A DNA stretch of 64,000 nt, taken from NCBI GenBank assembly GCA_047638595.1, contig JBLIMJ010000002.1, positions 640 to 64,639 on the forward strand, given 5' to 3'. Within the stretch, counting starts at the first letter, position 1, and each line of letters begins with the position of its first letter. Source of the DNA: Acidimicrobiales bacterium (lineage in GTDB: Bacteria > Patescibacteriota > Minisyncoccia > Phycocordibacterales > UBA918). The notes under the pieces were generated by a model, which worked only from the letters and a program-made list of their open reading frames with translations, searched no databases and was not told the origin of the DNA. This document shows positions 5,663 through 15,795 of this stretch, one piece after another. The position numbers and the translations under genes were made by a program.

Positions 5663-6333
5663 ATATTTATATTTTCTTAGGATAGTTTCATGAAGATGTC
5701 ATGACTTTCCTCTAATAATCCGGCTTGCTCACTTTCGCAAGTTCGCCTTCCACGTATACGTACTGCATGGTCACCCATAGCACAAAACACGCCTTCTGTT
5801 GCAAACTTTGAGAATCTTTCGATTATCCCGTTAGTTTGACTACAACAGAGCGGTCCTTCTTCACCTTCCTATTAAAGAATATGTGAGAGATGCGTATATC
5901 GCTTCGTGCACTAATATAGCAAAATACCCCATGAAGTCAATGGTAAAATCACTATTCTTACCCTTTTCAGGCGGTTGCTTTCTAAAGAAAACAACCGCCT
6001 GAAACACCTAGAAAGAGCTAAACACCCAAAATCAGGGCCATTTTGGGTGTTTATCTAAAATTCATATACAAAAACACGACAGCGAAGCTGTCGTGTTTTT
6101 GTATAGAGTTACCTCTTCGAACCGTTACGTTCTGTATCTGAGTTTTCAGTAATGTTTGACTTTCAACGGTACCGTCAAGTTTCTAAGTAAAATTTGTACT
6201 ACGTACAAATTCTACTAAGAACTTCCTGGCCGGACTCGACCGTTCTTTCTCTATGAAGAGAAAGAACATGTCTCCGACTTTTACCACTGAACGAAAGCAA
6301 AACTGTTTGCTTTCTAAAAACCAGAATCAGAAA
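5663..6333. other. 670-bp hairpin-rich noncoding spacer inside the spc cluster (between rplE and rpsZ); no ORF of 60 aa or more
   Basis: hairpins at 5964-6003, 6019-6051, 6070-6101, 6212-6236 and 6275-6375 (12-bp arms TTTACCACTGAA/TTCAGTGGTAAA enclosing the rplE 3-prime end). Confidence 0.6.
6070..6101. terminator. intrinsic terminator-like hairpin ACACGACAGC-GAAG-GCTGTCGTGT flanked by A-run/T-run, in the middle of the spc cluster
   Basis: perfect 10-bp stem; same ACACGACA stem motif as terminator at 1091. Confidence 0.55.
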
Positions 6334-9275: not shown

Positions 9276-9599
9276 TTACTTAGTACCGAGTTCAACGGCA
9301 ATGTGACTGTTTCGTTTGTTGATACGTGATGCACTTCCACGAGCTCGTGCTCGGAAACGCTTCAGTACAGTACCTTTGTTTACAGCCACCATTTTGATAA
9401 ATAGTGTATCTGCACTTTCGCCTGCTTGAATAGCATTTGCCTGTGCTGATTTGATAACCTTTGCAAATGGCTCTGCCGCTCGCTTTTCAGCAAACTTTAG
9501 TACTGCCAATGCTTCGTTAACTTTCTTCCCTCGAACAAGATCTGCGATAAGTCGAACCTTACGCGGAGACTGTCGGTAGTTTTTTAGAACTGCTTTCAT
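9276..9599 (-). CDS. rplV: 50S ribosomal protein L22
   Basis: MKAVLKNYRQSPRKVRLIADLVRGK. Confidence 0.9.
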   Translation of the reverse strand: MKAVLKNYRQSPRKVRLIADLVRGKKVNEALAVLKFAEKRAAEPFAKVIKSAQANAIQAGESADTLFIKMVAVNKGTVLKRFRARARGSASRINKRNSHIAVELGTK

Positions 9600-9615
9600 A
9601 GTTTCTTACGCAAGG

Positions 9616-9942
9616 TTATGAGGCTTTAGCAGCTTTAGCAGCTGCGATTTCAGCTTCTTTCTTCTTAACATCAAGTTCTTTCTGCATCTTTCCACCATGT
9701 CGGTAGAATTTTTTCGTGGGTGAGAATTCACCTAATCGATGACCTACCATATCTTCAGTTGCAAGAACTTCAATATGATCCTTTCCATTGTGTACTCCAA
9801 ATGTGAAGCCTACCATTTCAGGTGCAATCATCGAATCACGCGCCCATGTCTTGATTACTGCTGTTTCAACGCCTTTTTTACCAGCAATTTTTTTCAACAG
9901 TTTCTCGTCAACATAGGGACCTTTATATAGAGATCGTGACAT
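9616..9942 (-). CDS. rpsS: 30S ribosomal protein S19 (with Lys/Ala-rich C-terminal tail)
   Basis: [22 protein letters not shown].. Confidence 0.9.
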
Positions 9943-10448
9943 TGTATATATCTTAAAGAAGATGTTGCGAATATAGAAAACCGAACGGTTCGCTATATCC
10001 GCATACTTAATAATTATTCTGCCTCCCCTATCACATCGATAGGTTAGTGTAACGGTTTATTGTTAGGGATTGCCCTACCAGAGGCGAATCCAAAACGAGG
10101 TTAGAACGGGGCTATATTACGTGAAATATGTTGTAAAGTCAACACAATAATGGCCCCGGGAGGTCTCCCTGATCCATTGTACCAATTTGGTGTAAAATGC
10201 CGTTATCTCATAAGAAGTTAACAGATACAACTTGTATGAATGACTGATTCGCGGTACAAAGGGGTTAGGAGGTAAGAGATATGCCACAATTGTATGAAGA
10301 GTAGGCGATTTTGCCACCTGAACTACTTAAATCAGCCAAAAATGCGGAGCAGGAATTGAAAAACTTGCTAACTTGCTCTTAAAGGGCGTAACTGGCTTTG
10401 ATTCTGCGATTATAGCGCAATATCAAAGCACACAGGGAGAAACAAACG
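9943..10448. other. 500-bp structured noncoding region where rplB would normally abut rpsS; several nested hairpins
   Basis: hairpins at 9964-10010 (TGCGAATATAG..CTATATCCGCA with inner CGAACGGTTCG), 10030-10047, 10092-10141, 10142-10153. Confidence 0.5.
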
Positions 10449-10652
10449 ATGCCACACATGCTCACTGAACATGACCCGAAGCAAAGCGATGGGCAAGATG
10501 ACGGAAAAGCGATGGTCCTTAAGGTCCCACCGCTTGATTACGTCACAGAAGAAACAGATCCCCTGGGTAAGGCTAAAGGGCCTGCAGCAGAAGCAGTCGA
10601 CGTCGCAACAGAAGCTTTTGGGCCTGGGATTCTGGCTGGACTTAACCCCTAA
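10449..10652 (+). CDS. hypothetical small acidic protein (67 aa) encoded opposite to the ribosomal operon
   Basis: GGGAGA RBS 8 nt upstream; followed by hairpin plus T-run at 10672-10701. Confidence 0.4.
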   Translation: MPHMLTEHDPKQSDGQDDGKAMVLKVPPLDYVTEETDPLGKAKGPAAEAVDVATEAFGPGILAGLNP

Positions 10653-10671
10653 ACACCGCACACACTCAAAC

Positions 10672-10701
10672 TAAAGGCTGGGAAACCCGGCCTTTTCTTT
10701 T
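10672..10701 (+). terminator. hairpin GGCTGGG-AAA-CCCGGCC followed by TTTTCTTTTT
   Basis: read from sequence. Confidence 0.5.
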
Positions 10702-10722
10702 TATGTTATAGTCATTCTACAT

Positions 10723-11043
10723 ATGCCTAAACCCCGAGGAAAAGAACATACGACCCTTACGGAGACTGCTCAGGAGGTGGTTCGCATACTTAAAGGTATC
10801 TCCGGGGTAAAGATGATTGCTCCTGGCGAGATAAAAACTAACAGTCGTAAAGGTACAGGTGCACGCTTTGTGACCGCGGTATACACTACCGCGGGCATGG
10901 AACTCATTATCTCAGGACAAAGCGTACAGAAAGTAGCTATTCATACAGACGGAAATCCTAAAAATATATTTAAGCTACTTAAAGAACACAAGAAGATGAG
11001 AAATTTTGAGTTTAAACAGCGGGAGAGGAAGCCTGGAATTTAA
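10723..11043 (+). CDS. hypothetical protein (106 aa), basic C-terminus
   Basis: ORF; followed by perfect 13-bp-arm palindrome at 11042-11074. Confidence 0.4.
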   Translation: MPKPRGKEHTTLTETAQEVVRILKGISGVKMIAPGEIKTNSRKGTGARFVTAVYTTAGMELIISGQSVQKVAIHTDGNPKNIFKLLKEHKKMRNFEFKQRERKPGI

Positions 11044-11074
11044 ACAATACTACGTTTAACCGTAGTATTGTTTA
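11042..11074. terminator. perfect palindrome AAACAATACTACG-TTTAAAC-CGTAGTATTGTTT
   Basis: read from sequence. Confidence 0.45.
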
Positions 11075-11177
11075 AACTTCGATACAAAAGAATCTAATAT
11101 CTAACGAGCTTAGCTCCTTGCTTTTTTGTTTCTTTTGGGTATATTTCTTTAGGAAATCTTACACAAGGAAAAGAGCA

Positions 11178-11474
11178 ATGGCAAAAATTGGATTTAACGC
11201 TGTAAGTGAAGAACATAGCCACACTATCGATCAAGGCAACAAAATGAGGAAACTTTTTGCTGCCGTTGTACTCGCAGCATTTGATGATGCGATGGCTGAC
11301 GACAGGAAATACGGCAACGGTCCAGGAGTCATCGCACGCTGGGCTCGTTCACACGACGGTCGCGAAGTTCTGTTATGTGCAGGTATTGAACCAAGCGAAC
11401 GCGCTATAAGAGGAATGATGCAGTTTGTTGCTAATGGCGTGCCGACATCAAAAGCTCTGACAAGAAAAGAATAG
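11178..11474 (+). CDS. hypothetical protein (98 aa from MAKIGFNAV; ORF extends to 11118)
   Basis: AGGAAAAGAG RBS before ATG at 11178; convergent with rplB. Confidence 0.45.
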   Translation: MAKIGFNAVSEEHSHTIDQGNKMRKLFAAVVLAAFDDAMADDRKYGNGPGVIARWARSHDGREVLLCAGIEPSERAIRGMMQFVANGVPTSKALTRKE

Positions 11475-11579
11475 GTTGGGGGTATGTGAGTTACATACCC
11501 CTTTTTGTATTGTCTTTTTGACATTTACGGTGTTCGTCGCCAATCACTAAGTATATTTTTTTCGTCTTCGACTCCAAAC

Positions 11580-11734
11580 CTACTAAGTGTTCTCGACCCC
11601 ACCTCAACTGTCGCTAAAGCAACATGTTTCCGGCTTGGCAAGAGATCCGCAACTGCCTCAAGGCAGTTGTTAAAACAAAGAAAAACACTCCCTTTAAAGG
11701 GAGTGTTTTTCTTTGGTTTATCTCTTCCCACCCA
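11580..11734. repeat. tandem copy 1 of a 190-bp unit: degraded rplB 3-prime end (..IIIVSN-LGGKR*) plus three-stem structured bidirectional terminator
   Basis: P1 aagagat/atctctt, P2 caactgcc-tcaa-ggcagttg, P3 aaaacaaagaaaaac[ACTCCC-TTTAAA-GGGAGT]gtttttctttg. Confidence 0.75.
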
Positions 11735-11769
11735 AGTTACTAACTATAATTATTCGCTACCGCTCCAAT

Positions 11770-11925
11770 TCTAGTAAGTACTCGCGACCCCGACTCGTCT
11801 GTTGCTAAAGCAACATGACTCCGTCTTGGGAAGCGGTCACAACTGCCTCAAGGCAGTTGTTAAAACAAAGAAAAACCTCAGGCTTAAGCCTGGGGTTTTT
11901 CTTTGTTTTACCGCTTCCCACCCAT
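11770..11925. repeat. tandem copy 2 of the same unit, overlapping the true rplB stop
   Basis: P1 gaagcggt/accgcttc, identical P2, P3 apical stem CCTCAGGC-TTAA-GCCTGGGG: compensatory changes relative to copy 1. Confidence 0.75.
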
Positions 11926-12771
11926 CAGTGGTCCTGGCTTTCGTCTTGAAACAATCAATTTGTTTGAGTGTTTCTTCGGTGATCGAGTCTTTTGACCCTT
12001 TCCTGTTGGTCGACCTTGCTTTGTGCGAGATCGTTTGTGTCCTCGAGGAGATTTACCTTCACCACCTCCATGTGGGTGGTCAACTGCATTCTTCGCAGTA
12101 CCACGAGTCTTCGGTCGAAGTCCCATGTGTCGTGCGCGTCCTGCTTTACCGATTGATACCAGACGATGTTCTTCGTTTGATACTTCACCGACTGTTGCCC
12201 AACATGTTGAGAGTACCTTACGGATCTCAGTTGATGGCATTTTGAGTGTTGTGTATCCTGCATCGTGAGCGATCACTTCTGCGTGGATACCTGCAGCTCG
12301 AGCAATACGTGCTCCACCTTCAGGCTTCATCTCCACTGCATACACGAATGTACCAAGTGGGATGTTTGCGAGAGGAAGGCGGTTGGCTTTGGTTGGCTTT
12401 GCAGTTTCAGAAACTACAAATGTATCACCTTCCTTCATTCCTTGCTGTGAAAGAATGTACCGCCGTGCGCCGTCTGCATACAGAACTAAAGCAATGAAAC
12501 CAGTTCGGTACGGATCGTACTCGATAGTCTCTACTTTCGCAGGGACATCTTTCTTATCAAACTTAAAATCGATTTGTCGGTATTTTCGTTTATTACCAGC
12601 TCCTCGGTACCAGTTTGTGATACGTCCAGCGCTGTTACGTCCTCCTGTAGACTTCTTACCTTTTGTAAGTGCCTTTAGTGGTTTGCTTGCAGTTGAAGTA
12701 AGATACTTCTTGTACTCAATCACCGAGCCGTCACGACGGCCCGCTGATGTAGGTTTATATTTTTTTACCAT
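11908..12771 (-). CDS. rplB: 50S ribosomal protein L2 (start at MVKKYKPTSAGRR; ORF extends to 12834)
   Basis: KKYKPTSAGRR, VDHPHGGGEG motifs. Confidence 0.93.
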   Translation of the reverse strand: MVKKYKPTSAGRRDGSVIEYKKYLTSTASKPLKALTKGKKSTGGRNSAGRITNWYRGAGNKRKYRQIDFKFDKKDVPAKVETIEYDPYRTGFIALVLYADGARRYILSQQGMKEGDTFVVSETAKPTKANRLPLANIPLGTFVYAVEMKPEGGARIARAAGIHAEVIAHDAGYTTLKMPSTEIRKVLSTCWATVGEVSNEEHRLVSIGKAGRARHMGLRPKTRGTAKNAVDHPHGGGEGKSPRGHKRSRTKQGRPTGKGQKTRSPKKHSNKLIVSRRKPGPLMGGKR

Positions 12772-12840
12772 AATATCTGAGTGGTACCCAATAGTTAATT
12801 TCTGTGCTGTATGCTGCCACTGTATCAGTGACATTCATAC

Positions 12841-13242
12841 TTACACTAGGTTGATTGAATCTCCGTCTTTCAAATAGACGTATGCCTTCTTCACACCTTT
12901 TTCTGTTAATCGGCGTCCTTTTGTTTTCGACTTAAACTGTCGAGGAGTTTTGTTCACGATGTTGATTTTCACCGGCGTCACATTGTAGAGAGATTTAATT
13001 GCGTCGCGCACAAGGTACTTTGTAGCGTCAGGTCGAACGATAAATGTATGCACATTTCGTTCGCCCATACCTACTGCTTTTTCAGTAACGTGTGGCTTTA
13101 CAATTACACCCGCGAGATCGCGGTCAGTGGGAAATGAGTTACTTACTACAGGTTTTGTAGAGACTGTCTTTTCCGCTGTCTTCTCTCCAGTTTTTTTATC
13201 TGCTTTTGCAGATGTTTTTTTTGTTCGACTAAAGAGTGCCAT
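12841..13242 (-). CDS. rplW: 50S ribosomal protein L23 (N-terminal Lys/Thr-rich extension)
   Basis: C-terminal half matches L23; operon position. Confidence 0.85.
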   Translation of the reverse strand: MALFSRTKKTSAKADKKTGEKTAEKTVSTKPVVSNSFPTDRDLAGVIVKPHVTEKAVGMGERNVHTFIVRPDATKYLVRDAIKSLYNVTPVKINIVNKTPRQFKSKTKGRRLTEKGVKKAYVYLKDGDSINLV

Positions 13243-14577: not shown

Positions 14578-14627
14578 TTATTTAATTGAACTAGTCTAAT
14601 AATAGTAGCTTTGTTAGACCAACAAAT

Positions 14628-14697
14628 GAGAAATCGCACCGTTTTGGCGCGAGCAGAATGCTCACACAAAAACGGTGCGATTTCTGCCCATTGGTTC
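14628..14697. promoter_or_regulatory. 70-nt hairpin with perfect 17-bp outer stem (AGAAATCGCACCGTTTT/AAAACGGTGCGATTTCT) and inner hairpin GAGCA-GAA-TGCTC, upstream of rplC
   Basis: read from sequence; architecture like the other hairpin-in-hairpin modules. Confidence 0.5.
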
Positions 14698-15140
14698 TCA
14701 TGTCTGCAAGCAAACAATCATCGAACATAGGTCTTTTAAAGCTGGGAGTAGTATACGTATTTATACAATAATTGCAAGACATTCATGGTTACTTTTATTG
14801 GTACAAATTAACAAGCGCAGCGTTTAAAAAGGCGTGATGATTGCACATTTCGTAGTAATAACAATAGTGACGGTACCGCGACCACTCCAAAAGGTATAAG
14901 TTTTGCTACCTGCATCATTAATGAAGACAGAACGCCTCTTAAAGGTTACGAGGGTCATATCTGCCTGATGGATCATCCAGAACATTCAGAAGATTCCGAA
15001 CATTCAGGGACGTGGTGGTATCTATAAGAGGAGGAAAGGTAAGCATACCCCATCTCGGCGATATCTCTTCAAGATGTTGCGTTTGGCTAAAAGTGTAGTA
15101 CTGTTGCACTAAATTAGTACATCAACCATGGGAGATACCG

Positions 15141-15572
15141 ATGAGCAATTCAGATGGAAAAATAATAGTTGCAACAGCTGATGTTGGTGCTGTTCTTGCT
15201 CTGTTGAAACAGCTTGAGCTAGACACAAGTCTTATATTCACAACATCAGGTGAACCACTTGATGAAGGGGCGTTCGAGCGCCTCGGAGCAGAAGTCCGAG
15301 AAATATTAGCGACGCGTAACCTTCCTGTAGCAGATGTTTTGAGGCTTATGGAAAAGGTTGTGAGTGAAGAACCTCCAGTCCTTGCATTGCTGGATGAACT
15401 GTTCAGACCGCAGAAAGGACTCGAACTATTTGCTCCAATGGAAGCACATATGTTGTCAGACATTCCCATAATTCATCTGATTGAAGAGAAGCCGCACCGG
15501 GCATTCGACAATGGCGCAGAAATTCGTTCTGCAAAAGGAGCACGGAAAAAACAAACTCGTTTCAACACCTAG
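15141..15572 (+). CDS. hypothetical protein (143 aa) inserted between rpsJ and rplC on the opposite strand
   Basis: GGAGA RBS 6 nt before ATG; own terminator at 15627-15660; antisense ORF 15122-15469 is low complexity. Confidence 0.55.
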   Translation: MSNSDGKIIVATADVGAVLALLKQLELDTSLIFTTSGEPLDEGAFERLGAEVREILATRNLPVADVLRLMEKVVSEEPPVLALLDELFRPQKGLELFAPMEAHMLSDIPIIHLIEEKPHRAFDNGAEIRSAKGARKKQTRFNT

Positions 15573-15626
15573 CGCGGAAAGTACCCGAAGGCCACCTTGG
15601 TCTTCGGGAATTTTTATACATATAAC

Positions 15627-15660
15627 AAAAGACCGACAGCTTAGCTGTCGGTCTTTTGTT
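15627..15660 (+). terminator. AAAAGACCGACAGC-TTAG-GCTGTCGGTCTTTTGTT intrinsic terminator
   Basis: perfect 14-bp stem with T-run. Confidence 0.65.
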
Positions 15661-15795
15661 ATCCTCACGGACTATCAAATTTTCTTAAAATTGATGAGCT
15701 GCAAGGCGAGATGAAGTTTTATCGGGAGCGGTACATAGGTACCGTGACTGATAAAACTGAAATCTCAACGCCGCAGATCGCTCATTTAAGGAAAT

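Follow-up and report, generated by a model that had tools for sequence, protein, structure and literature searches.

Behind rplB, the gene for ribosomal protein L2, a 64-kb stretch of contig JBLIMJ010000002.1 (the window, analysed over its whole length of 64,000 nucleotides) carries two tandem non-coding units that belong to a new and large family of structured elements. Members of this family covary strongly and lie with strict polarity directly behind tRNA and transfer-messenger RNA (tmRNA) genes and a few essential protein genes. They hold an arm that pairs with the end of the upstream gene, and copies of that gene end are duplicated around them. The family is apparently undescribed and widespread in Patescibacteria. 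With about an even chance of being right, the units can be read as 150-200-nucleotide (nt) non-coding, structured, non-autonomous integrative elements of Paceibacteria (Patescibacteria) that replace the 3' ends of genes.

rplB is an S10-operon gene on the minus strand (12771-11908; Pfam Ribosomal_L2_N and L2_C), and the two units follow it head to tail as a direct repeat with a period of 190-191 bp. Their pairwise alignment gives 83% identity, which bears out the tandem copies reported in an earlier reading of the sequence (the original prediction); the copy limits given there did not hold, and the true limits are 11924-11732 and 11735-11537 (minus strand). The repeat consists of blocks of 76 nt (78% identity), 37 nt (100%) and 30 nt (90%), of which the 37-nt block lies at 11650-11686 and 11840-11876. 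Inside it is the hairpin CAACTGCC-TCAA-GGCAGTTG, correctly described as identical in both copies, which has exactly two occurrences in 64 kb compared with 0 expected. In the predicted fold of each unit, helix P1 encloses P2 and P3, followed by P4 and a long P5. All four single-strand folds (each unit, either strand) give a three-way junction with z = -6.2 to -10.7, and the segments that differ between the units are paired. On its 5' side, P1 uses the last rplB codons (GGGAAGCGGU) in unit 1 and their copy (GGGAAGAGAU) in unit 2; P2 is a long stem of A/U pairs topped by a GC apex, and P3 is the CAACUGCC hairpin. P1 and the apical stem had been said to differ in sequence while keeping their pairing, and this was confirmed for both. 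The P1 arms TGGGAAGCGGT/ACCGCTTCCCA are complementary at 11 of 11 positions and TGGCAAGAGAT/ATCTCTTCCCA at 10 of 11, with two true compensatory changes between the units (A-T to G-C and A-T to C-G), and the P2 apexes are unrelated in sequence with pairing kept in both. The order along the window is T1 (11924-11908), unit 1, T2 (11735-11718), unit 2 and a decayed T3, where T stands for a copy of the target gene end. The parts of the units are as follows.

11924-11732, minus strand: unit 1, full limits
11908-11924, minus strand: T1, last five rplB codons and stop (TGGGTGGGAAGCGGTAA); 11919-11910 is the P1 5' strand of unit 1
11862-11909, minus strand: P2 of unit 1, an A-tract, GC apex hairpin and U-tract, terminator-like in both directions
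11839-11860, minus strand: P3 hairpin of unit 1, ACAACUGCC-UUGA-GGCAGUUGU, from fold and covariation
11828-11837, minus strand: anti-T arm of unit 1 (ACCGCUUCCC), the P1 3' strand, complementary to the rplB end
11792-11825, minus strand: P4 of unit 1, with 3-bp P4a, conserved internal loop G(G/C)A / GA and P4b hairpin
11732-11791, minus strand: conserved GGGG junction and long P5 hairpin of unit 1 (ACUUAnUA, UUAGUnA)
11735-11537, minus strand: unit 2, full limits
11718-11735, minus strand: T2, second copy of the rplB end (TTGGGTGGGAAGAGATAA, LGGKR*), also the P1 5' strand of unit 2
11537-11719, minus strand: unit 2, body after T2, 110.6 bits with the covariance model
11719-11672, minus strand: P2 of unit 2
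11669-11650, minus strand: P3 of unit 2
11646-11637, minus strand: anti-T arm of unit 2
11634-11601, minus strand: P4 of unit 2
11600-11597, minus strand: GGGG of unit 2
11596-11537, minus strand: P5 of unit 2
11523-11541, minus strand: T3, putative decayed third copy of the rplB end (GGCGACGAACACCGTAAAT), compared with the internal-unit consensus GTGACGAAAGnGnTAA

P5 of unit 1 has CUUGG in place of the usual YGUGAC end. The rplB stop codon (11908-11910) lies within the gene-proximal unit 1, in agreement with the proposed overlap of one copy with the true stop. The Arg codon of T2 differs synonymously from that of T1. The distal unit had been thought to carry a degraded L2 C-terminus, and its 18-nt LGGKR* segment does copy the L2 end; the adjoining RIIIVSN is the conserved 3' strand of P5 in all members, including tRNA-linked ones, and its resemblance to L2 is therefore coincidental. 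The intrinsic-terminator consensus (GC-rich stem-loop with U-tract) is found in P2 only, on both strands, and P2 of both units was detected as an intrinsic terminator, at 11676-11715 on the plus strand and at 11892-11879 on the minus strand. In the window, P2 of unit 1 probably also terminates rplB, which is held with moderate confidence. The bidirectional terminator of the original prediction survives as one module, optional in relatives, and it does not account for P4/P5, the conserved core. The convergent open reading frame (ORF) 11178-11474, which the units were supposed to terminate, has its own terminator at 11478-11502, and therefore the units are not needed for this.

The family extends beyond rplB. 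A metagenome scan with a degenerate pattern derived from the conserved core matched at least 120 contigs, and among the matches listed, to which all metagenome counts below refer, 111 copies were confirmed by the model. Of 87 copies, 56 have a tRNA or tmRNA gene of the same orientation at most 200 nt upstream, and 0 lie behind a tRNA on the opposite strand. At least 25 tRNA isoacceptors carry the element, and other copies are found 3' of ftsZ and of ORFs that are ddl-like and miaA-like by C-terminal sequence. In the window, a covariance model of the P3-P5 part of the element found exactly three copies, all sense to ribosomal protein genes; an 8-kb extension of the genome was scanned and gave no further copy. 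The third copy lies behind rplE (L5), with its model match at 6318-6172.

6369-6172, minus strand: third family member, 3' of rplE, 113.3 bits, E 1.6e-27
6369-6359, minus strand: T of the rplE copy (TTACCACTGAA), the P1 5' strand, inside the last L5 codons
6315-6293, minus strand: P3 of the rplE copy
6291-6281, minus strand: anti-T arm of the rplE copy
6278-6233, minus strand: P4 of the rplE copy
6229-6172, minus strand: P5 of the rplE copy
6154-6138, minus strand: degenerate second T copy behind the unit

Full-text literature searches found no paper describing the element; a paper on group I introns in Patescibacteria tRNAs concerns anticodon-loop introns, which are unrelated. Rfam 15 at gathering threshold gave 0 hits in the whole window, and Rfam E-value searches of the region and seven related loci returned only sub-threshold terminator-like matches (psRNA14, psbA 3'UTR). 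Phage collections held no match, plasmids only chance matches of 40-58 nt, and viral contigs no match with the strict pattern and three with a loose pattern that the model did not confirm. Among 393 ORFs within 2.5 kb of the metagenome copies, only housekeeping clusters recur (FtsZ, FtsA, MiaA-like).

Comparison across homologues supports the structure. With the L2 protein of the window, 80 rplB loci were retrieved from Patescibacteria metagenome-assembled genomes labelled Paceibacteria, Kaiserbacteria or Nomurabacteria, and the element lies directly 3' of rplB in 27 of them. RNAalifold predicted 58 pairs from 19 full rplB-linked units, 50 of them with double compensatory changes, including 10 of 10 pairs in P1, 11 of 13 in P2 and 9 of 9 in P3. 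In these units 95.7% of the cells are paired, compared with 73% after shuffling and 37-44% with partners slid. In 87 independent metagenome copies the corresponding values are 96.3%, 72% and about 33%, with 708 double-change cells. Compensatory changes are present in both sets, and the claim of a structure under selection is upheld. In the metagenome copies, G.U and U.G pairs together number 167 compared with 23 for A.C and C.A; one G.U at the base of P5 is kept in 78 of the 87 copies, and without it G.U and U.G amount to 89. Since G.U far exceeds A.C, it can be concluded that the selected structure belongs to the strand sense to the upstream gene, in which wobble pairs are tolerated. The functional form is probably this gene-sense single strand as RNA, with sense-strand single-stranded DNA (ssDNA) as the alternative. 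A conserved YGUGAC closes the units; its UGA is paired with the UCG behind the conserved GGGG. P2 and P3 are optional inserts inside the helix of arm and gene end; P2 is missing in L181, L151, L134 and at ftsZ sites, whereas the core is always present. An optional insertion of 90-250 nt between the conserved GGG and UCG was also observed (L010, L021, L029, L037, L060 and L065; for example, L029:3134-3233). It contains conserved motifs of its own, UGAGAA...UUCGCAAGA...GUGGACAG...CUGUAAG and covarying hairpins, and it resembles a second structured domain.

P1 is formed by the last nucleotides of the upstream gene paired with the arm of the element, and it varies by gene; it is not an internal, free-standing RNA helix. 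Immediately 5' of P4, a segment complementary to the upstream gene end over 9-14 bp is present in about 55 of 78 copies, and the mean pairing score of arm and gene end is 10.3 compared with 7.2 for shuffled arms. P1 tracks the coding sequence where the L2 C-terminus differs (GSKQ* in L065, GATL* in L072, SGK* in L041 and L042, GNK* in L012). tRNA-linked arms fall into two classes, one pairing with the T-loop/T-stem and the acceptor 3' strand and the other with the last ~5 tRNA nt and ~6 nt beyond. The ftsZ arm mirrors some 30 coding nucleotides imperfectly, and the stop codon falls in the loop. An alternative helix between the anti-T arm and the downstream T2 is possible in some loci, and was rejected as not conserved (L015, L075). 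Across L001-L080, the last 3-4 L2 residues vary along with the arm (GGKR, RSGK, GGGR, GSKQ, GATL, RGNK). Many element-linked rplB ends share ...GGTAA or GATAA, and the element may therefore supply the final L2 codons and the stop.

A second copy of the gene end begins directly after GTGAC. At six tRNA sites it is 13-24 nt long and starts in the T-loop. Internal rplB units open with GTGAC-GAAAGnGnTAA, which equals the genome's own rplB end in L019, L005 and L060. Four ftsZ contigs have two complete VPAFLRRSKL(K/R)* ends (last 11 codons), and by hand count the pairs of ends contain about 40 nucleotide differences and 0 amino-acid differences; identity is complete over the first 12-14 nt in L175 and L199, and in three other contigs the second copy is decayed. 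The ftsZ arm pairs with the first gene-end copy and not with the second, which indicates that both copies evolved as working gene ends. The simplest account is an element-borne gene end, co-adapted with the arm, that displaces the native end. The same duplication pattern is made by phage 21 and e14 in icd, integrative elements that bring a surrogate gene end. As with tyrosine integrases, a direct repeat of the target 3' end flanks the element (13-24 nt at tRNAs, 36 nt at ftsZ and T1/T2/T3 at rplB).

In the integrative reading, the element would consist of a surrogate target 3' end (T1), usually its own terminator P2, the P3 hairpin, the T1-complementary arm and the core, the latter being P4 with its internal loop, the GGGG junction and a long P5 ending in YGUGAC. 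Integration would take place at the 5' edge of the target segment, after which the copy brought by the element would complete the gene and the native end (T2) would be displaced just behind the element. Repeated integration would produce T-E-T-E-T arrays, where E is the element, and gene-distal units would decay. Site-specific integration and excision may have given rise to the copies, with catalysis by a factor whose gene lies elsewhere. Such a factor would recognise the core as a scaffold in its single-stranded gene-sense form (most likely RNA), while the anti-T arm would select or present the target by base pairing. A bolder version, put forward as doubtful, is a new programmable homing system in which the P4/P5 three-way-junction core is the scaffold or catalytic part and the anti-T arm a 9-30-nt guide to the 3' end of an essential gene. 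A small single-stranded intermediate (RNA or ssDNA, possibly circular) would insert itself at the site set by the guide and bring along gene end and terminator. This would be an insertion element of only ~190 nt, guided by RNA or by structure, with any protein partner encoded elsewhere. Guidance of targeting by the arm and a recombination or catalytic role of the core are speculative.

The rplB-rpsS spacer of the 80 relatives ranges from 24 nt to >4 kb, and the element copy number differs between close relatives. Unit 1 has its orthologue in the first unit of L001, L003 and L004 (84-87% identity continuing from rplB), and unit 2 has no orthologue in these three loci, of which L003 and L004 are the closest relatives. 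rplB arrays hold decayed and truncated units, the gene-proximal ones being intact and the distal ones decayed. In L060, the arm of unit 1 matches the rplB end of another species, and the arm of the next unit matches the resident end. Recurrent short units were also observed, in which a gene-end copy is fused directly to the P3 loop and 3' half, P2 and the 5' half of P3 being gone (L004:3004-3094, L060:5051-5142, L021:5490-5560, L029:3290-3360 and L005:5051-5110). These units point to a favoured site of recombination in the P3 loop.

Several observations weigh against integration. Core identity is about 70% whether copies share a contig, a target type or neither, with no signal of a recent burst or of recent transposition within genomes, and the gene-proximal copies look maintained by selection, which is also compatible with a host function. 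With P2 in front of it, the core should be transcribed only to a limited extent. Many tRNA sites repeat only the last ~3 nt (CAC, CGC or GAC, tracking the tRNA), and a permutation test of this short repeat is weak (17 observed, 11 expected, maximum 19). No pair of otherwise identical genomes with an empty and a filled site was found, and inspection of the unit ends by eye, without a systematic search, revealed no terminal inverted repeats. Pfam scans of 30 window ORFs gave no recombinase, transposase or reverse transcriptase (RT), and none was seen near 80 metagenome loci, where the 25 largest clusters of the 393 neighbouring ORFs were judged by sequence inspection rather than by Pfam scan. 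The machinery is therefore hypothetical.

The chief competing reading is a 3'-end RNA module of the host acting in cis, a transcribed trailer or 3' untranslated region (3' UTR) in the service of the upstream gene. It would define, process or protect the 3' ends of highly expressed RNAs, or clear away transcripts that have passed P2, and P1 would hold the upstream RNA end like a clamp. Duplication, transformation and recombination would have spread the module, with the duplicated gene ends as by-products. This is a real but minority possibility. The strict polarity and position behind tRNA, tmRNA, rplB, rplE and ftsZ agree with it, as do the excess of G.U over A.C, which indicates sense-strand RNA, the intact gene-proximal and decaying distal units, the lack of a mobility gene nearby and the presence of a competence gene (ComEC) in the window. 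In addition, the copies are about equally diverged and yet 96% paired, and each copy is therefore under purifying selection. However, such a module leaves unexplained why a second gene-end copy stands exactly at the GTGAC end at unrelated genes, why some 30 nt of ftsZ coding sequence are mirrored (imperfectly) in the arm, and why the arm of unit 1 in L060 matches a foreign rplB end. Moreover, 53 of 80 related species have no element at rplB, and P2 should stop most transcripts ahead of the core.

The units could instead be scars of larger islands or prophages that encoded an integrase, left as attL- or attR-proximal remnants after cargo and integrase were deleted, but this is unlikely. The target spectrum (tRNA T-loop and extreme 3' end, tmRNA, protein-gene 3' ends) and the duplicated ends are like those of tyrosine-integrase elements, and the rplB-rpsS gap is hypervariable (24 nt to >4 kb) with variable genes. 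Williams is said to have described in 2002 that tyrosine-integrase elements target such sub-locations of tRNA and tmRNA genes (T-loop, extreme 3' end). However, the second gene end lies at most ~190 nt from the first in essentially all cases, with only the structured unit between them, no integrase was found at any of about 200 loci, and phage, plasmid and viral-contig collections gave no match. Nor would helix covariation, a strand-asymmetric excess of G.U or an inverted core copy be expected of attachment-site arms. The original prediction derived the unit from a duplication of the gene end together with its terminator. Such a local tandem duplication of the rplB end and a bidirectional intrinsic terminator, with compensatory drift, covers a small part of the features. 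In its favour are a P2 that is terminator-like on both strands, the identical 37-nt and near-identical 30-nt blocks shared by units 1 and 2, and the lineage-specific extra unit. It is true that the distal unit opens with a copy of the rplB end, but the unit is a member of a dispersed family and not a private duplication. The element also lies behind rplE here and behind tRNA, tmRNA and ftsZ in at least 120 contigs, the most conserved part (P4/P5) is no terminator, and the convergent ORF has a terminator of its own. As a complete explanation, local duplication is already contradicted, and it is considered highly improbable.

Other features of the neighbourhood were also observed. The rplB-rpsS junction, which is normally tight, is opened by a 1.97-kb gap (window 9943-11907) with three ORFs antisense to the operon: 10449-10652 (67 amino acids, no Pfam match), 10723-11043 (DUF2103) and 11178-11474 (DUF6280). 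The DUF2103 gene recurs in the rplB-rpsS gap of relatives, whereas DUF6280 does not, and further rplB-end copies bracketing the gap ORFs were looked for and none was found. rpsS (window 10142-9943, minus strand) comes with a promoter-like site of its own, TTGACT-17-TAATAT, and its leader of ~170 nt shows 82-85% conservation in L003, L005, L007 and L012; this is a candidate ribosomal-protein leader without an Rfam hit. The S10 operon is also interrupted upstream of rplC (window 14578-15795), where a plus-strand ORF (15141-15572, 143 amino acids) has no Pfam match. Downstream of the rplE copy, window 6123-6065 (minus strand) holds GGTTCGAAGAGGTAA and, after it, a terminator-like hairpin; this stretch is similar to an rplB-type gene end with P2 (compare L065) and may be the remnant of a unit from another target. 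The rplE-rpsN spacer of ~670 nt (window 5663-6333, minus strand) contains several terminator-like hairpins and a promoter-like TTGACT...TATATT, and the S14 gene has a 5' UTR of ~250 nt in this spacer; the spc operon, too, is broken there.

If the integrative reading is true, the ultra-small genomes of Patescibacteria harbour a very compact selfish or domesticated element in essential genes (tRNA, tmRNA, rplB, rplE, ftsZ), where it is harmless to them. Harm would be avoided by the surrogate gene end and terminator, and the target would apparently be written in a short complementary arm. This would be a natural case of reprogrammable gene-end-specific insertion by a 190-nt non-coding unit. The broken, hypervariable S10/spc operon after rplB in this clade and the variable last L2 residues would then also be explained. 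With more than 100 members and no Rfam model, the family would be a new, strongly covarying RNA family. If the units are a host module, a 3'-end RNA module common to tRNAs, tmRNA and mRNAs would likewise be a new kind of bacterial 3'-end element.

Several known systems were tried and rejected. Self-cleaving ribozymes (hammerhead, twister, twister-sister, hatchet, pistol, hepatitis delta virus (HDV) and hairpin) gave no match, neither in 9500-13000 at E<=10 nor in seven loci at E<=0.1. For group I introns there is no RF00028 match, the unit ends in ...GUGAC and not in G, and the upstream tRNA or ORF is complete without splicing. For group II introns there is no RF00029 match, the unit is ~190 nt compared with >400 nt, and no RT is nearby; no group II intron turned up in a survey of 95 complete genomes of Patescibacteria (PMC13011429). 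Integron attC sites have the consensus GTTRRRY, which the conserved GTTAGTR does not fit; the units adjoin each other and the gap ORFs are not flanked by them. A diversity-generating retroelement was rejected with repeats of 10-36 nt compared with a template/variable repeat (TR/VR) of ~100 bp, and with no RT; T2 has A where T1 has C/G at two sites, and other arrays are without an adenine-specific pattern. Priming of the kind seen at a primer-binding site was rejected, the arm also pairing with nucleotides past the mature tRNA end, and a retron and a hammerhead-like junction were both considered and rejected. TIGR arrays are described as arrays of short guide RNAs, and the units here are ~190 nt and structured.

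Closer likenesses exist to other systems. Like a Rho-independent terminator, P2 combines an A-tract, a GC-rich hairpin and a U-tract when read on either strand, and it follows immediately on the stop codon or tRNA end. P2 makes up only ~48 of 190 nt, however, and is absent in some members, while the core is always present. In the R2 retrotransposon, P1 of the 5' HDV-like ribozyme is partly formed with the 28S rRNA target. R2 is also a promoterless insertion in a highly transcribed host gene, with an RNA helix with the host target at the junction. This is an analogy only; the units are in bacterial hosts, with no match to an HDV or other ribozyme model and no RT. REP/BIME, Correia/NEMIS and the IS200/IS605-derived PATEs are likewise small, non-coding, hairpin-forming and dispersed; they sometimes stand in tandem, lie after genes and can supply terminators. 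Those families are marked by terminal inverted repeats or palindromic units and by short, fixed targets of 2-5 nt, and their members neither pair with nor duplicate the upstream gene end. The units here have variable gene ends as targets and duplications of 3-36 nt. Repeats of the type of miniature inverted-repeat transposable elements further differ from the units, which show strict co-orientation (56 compared with 0) and a covarying core of 36 pairs.

The bridge RNA (seekRNA) of IS110/IS1111 is alike in its working, with a conserved non-coding scaffold, short variable target-complementary segments and a reprogrammable target, and the element end is base-paired within the scaffold (here GGUCG with UGACC). 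The anti-T arm would be the counterpart of the target-complementary segment, judged from its complementarity, in a different architecture. No ORF for a DEDD (RuvC-like) recombinase lies in or beside any unit, the structure here is a three-way junction and not two internal-loop hairpins, the guide is long (9-30 nt), and the target duplications are long instead of a 2-nt core. Therefore, membership in the IS110/IS1111 bridge-RNA elements is not supported. Tyrosine-integrase islands and prophages (P4-like; phage 21 and e14 in icd) also target the T-loop, the extreme 3' end of tRNA and tmRNA, and the last codons of genes. In these elements, too, the element-borne copy completes the gene and the displaced native end forms the direct repeat on the far side, coding-end copies differ synonymously, and tandem accretion takes place. 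The units differ in being only 150-200 nt long, without integrase or cargo; no integrase gene was found within the element, and only the non-coding unit lies between the repeats. In contrast to tyrosine-integrase elements, one conserved core here goes with >25 targets, and the units hold an inverted copy of the target (anti-T), RNA-type covariation and an excess of G.U pairs.

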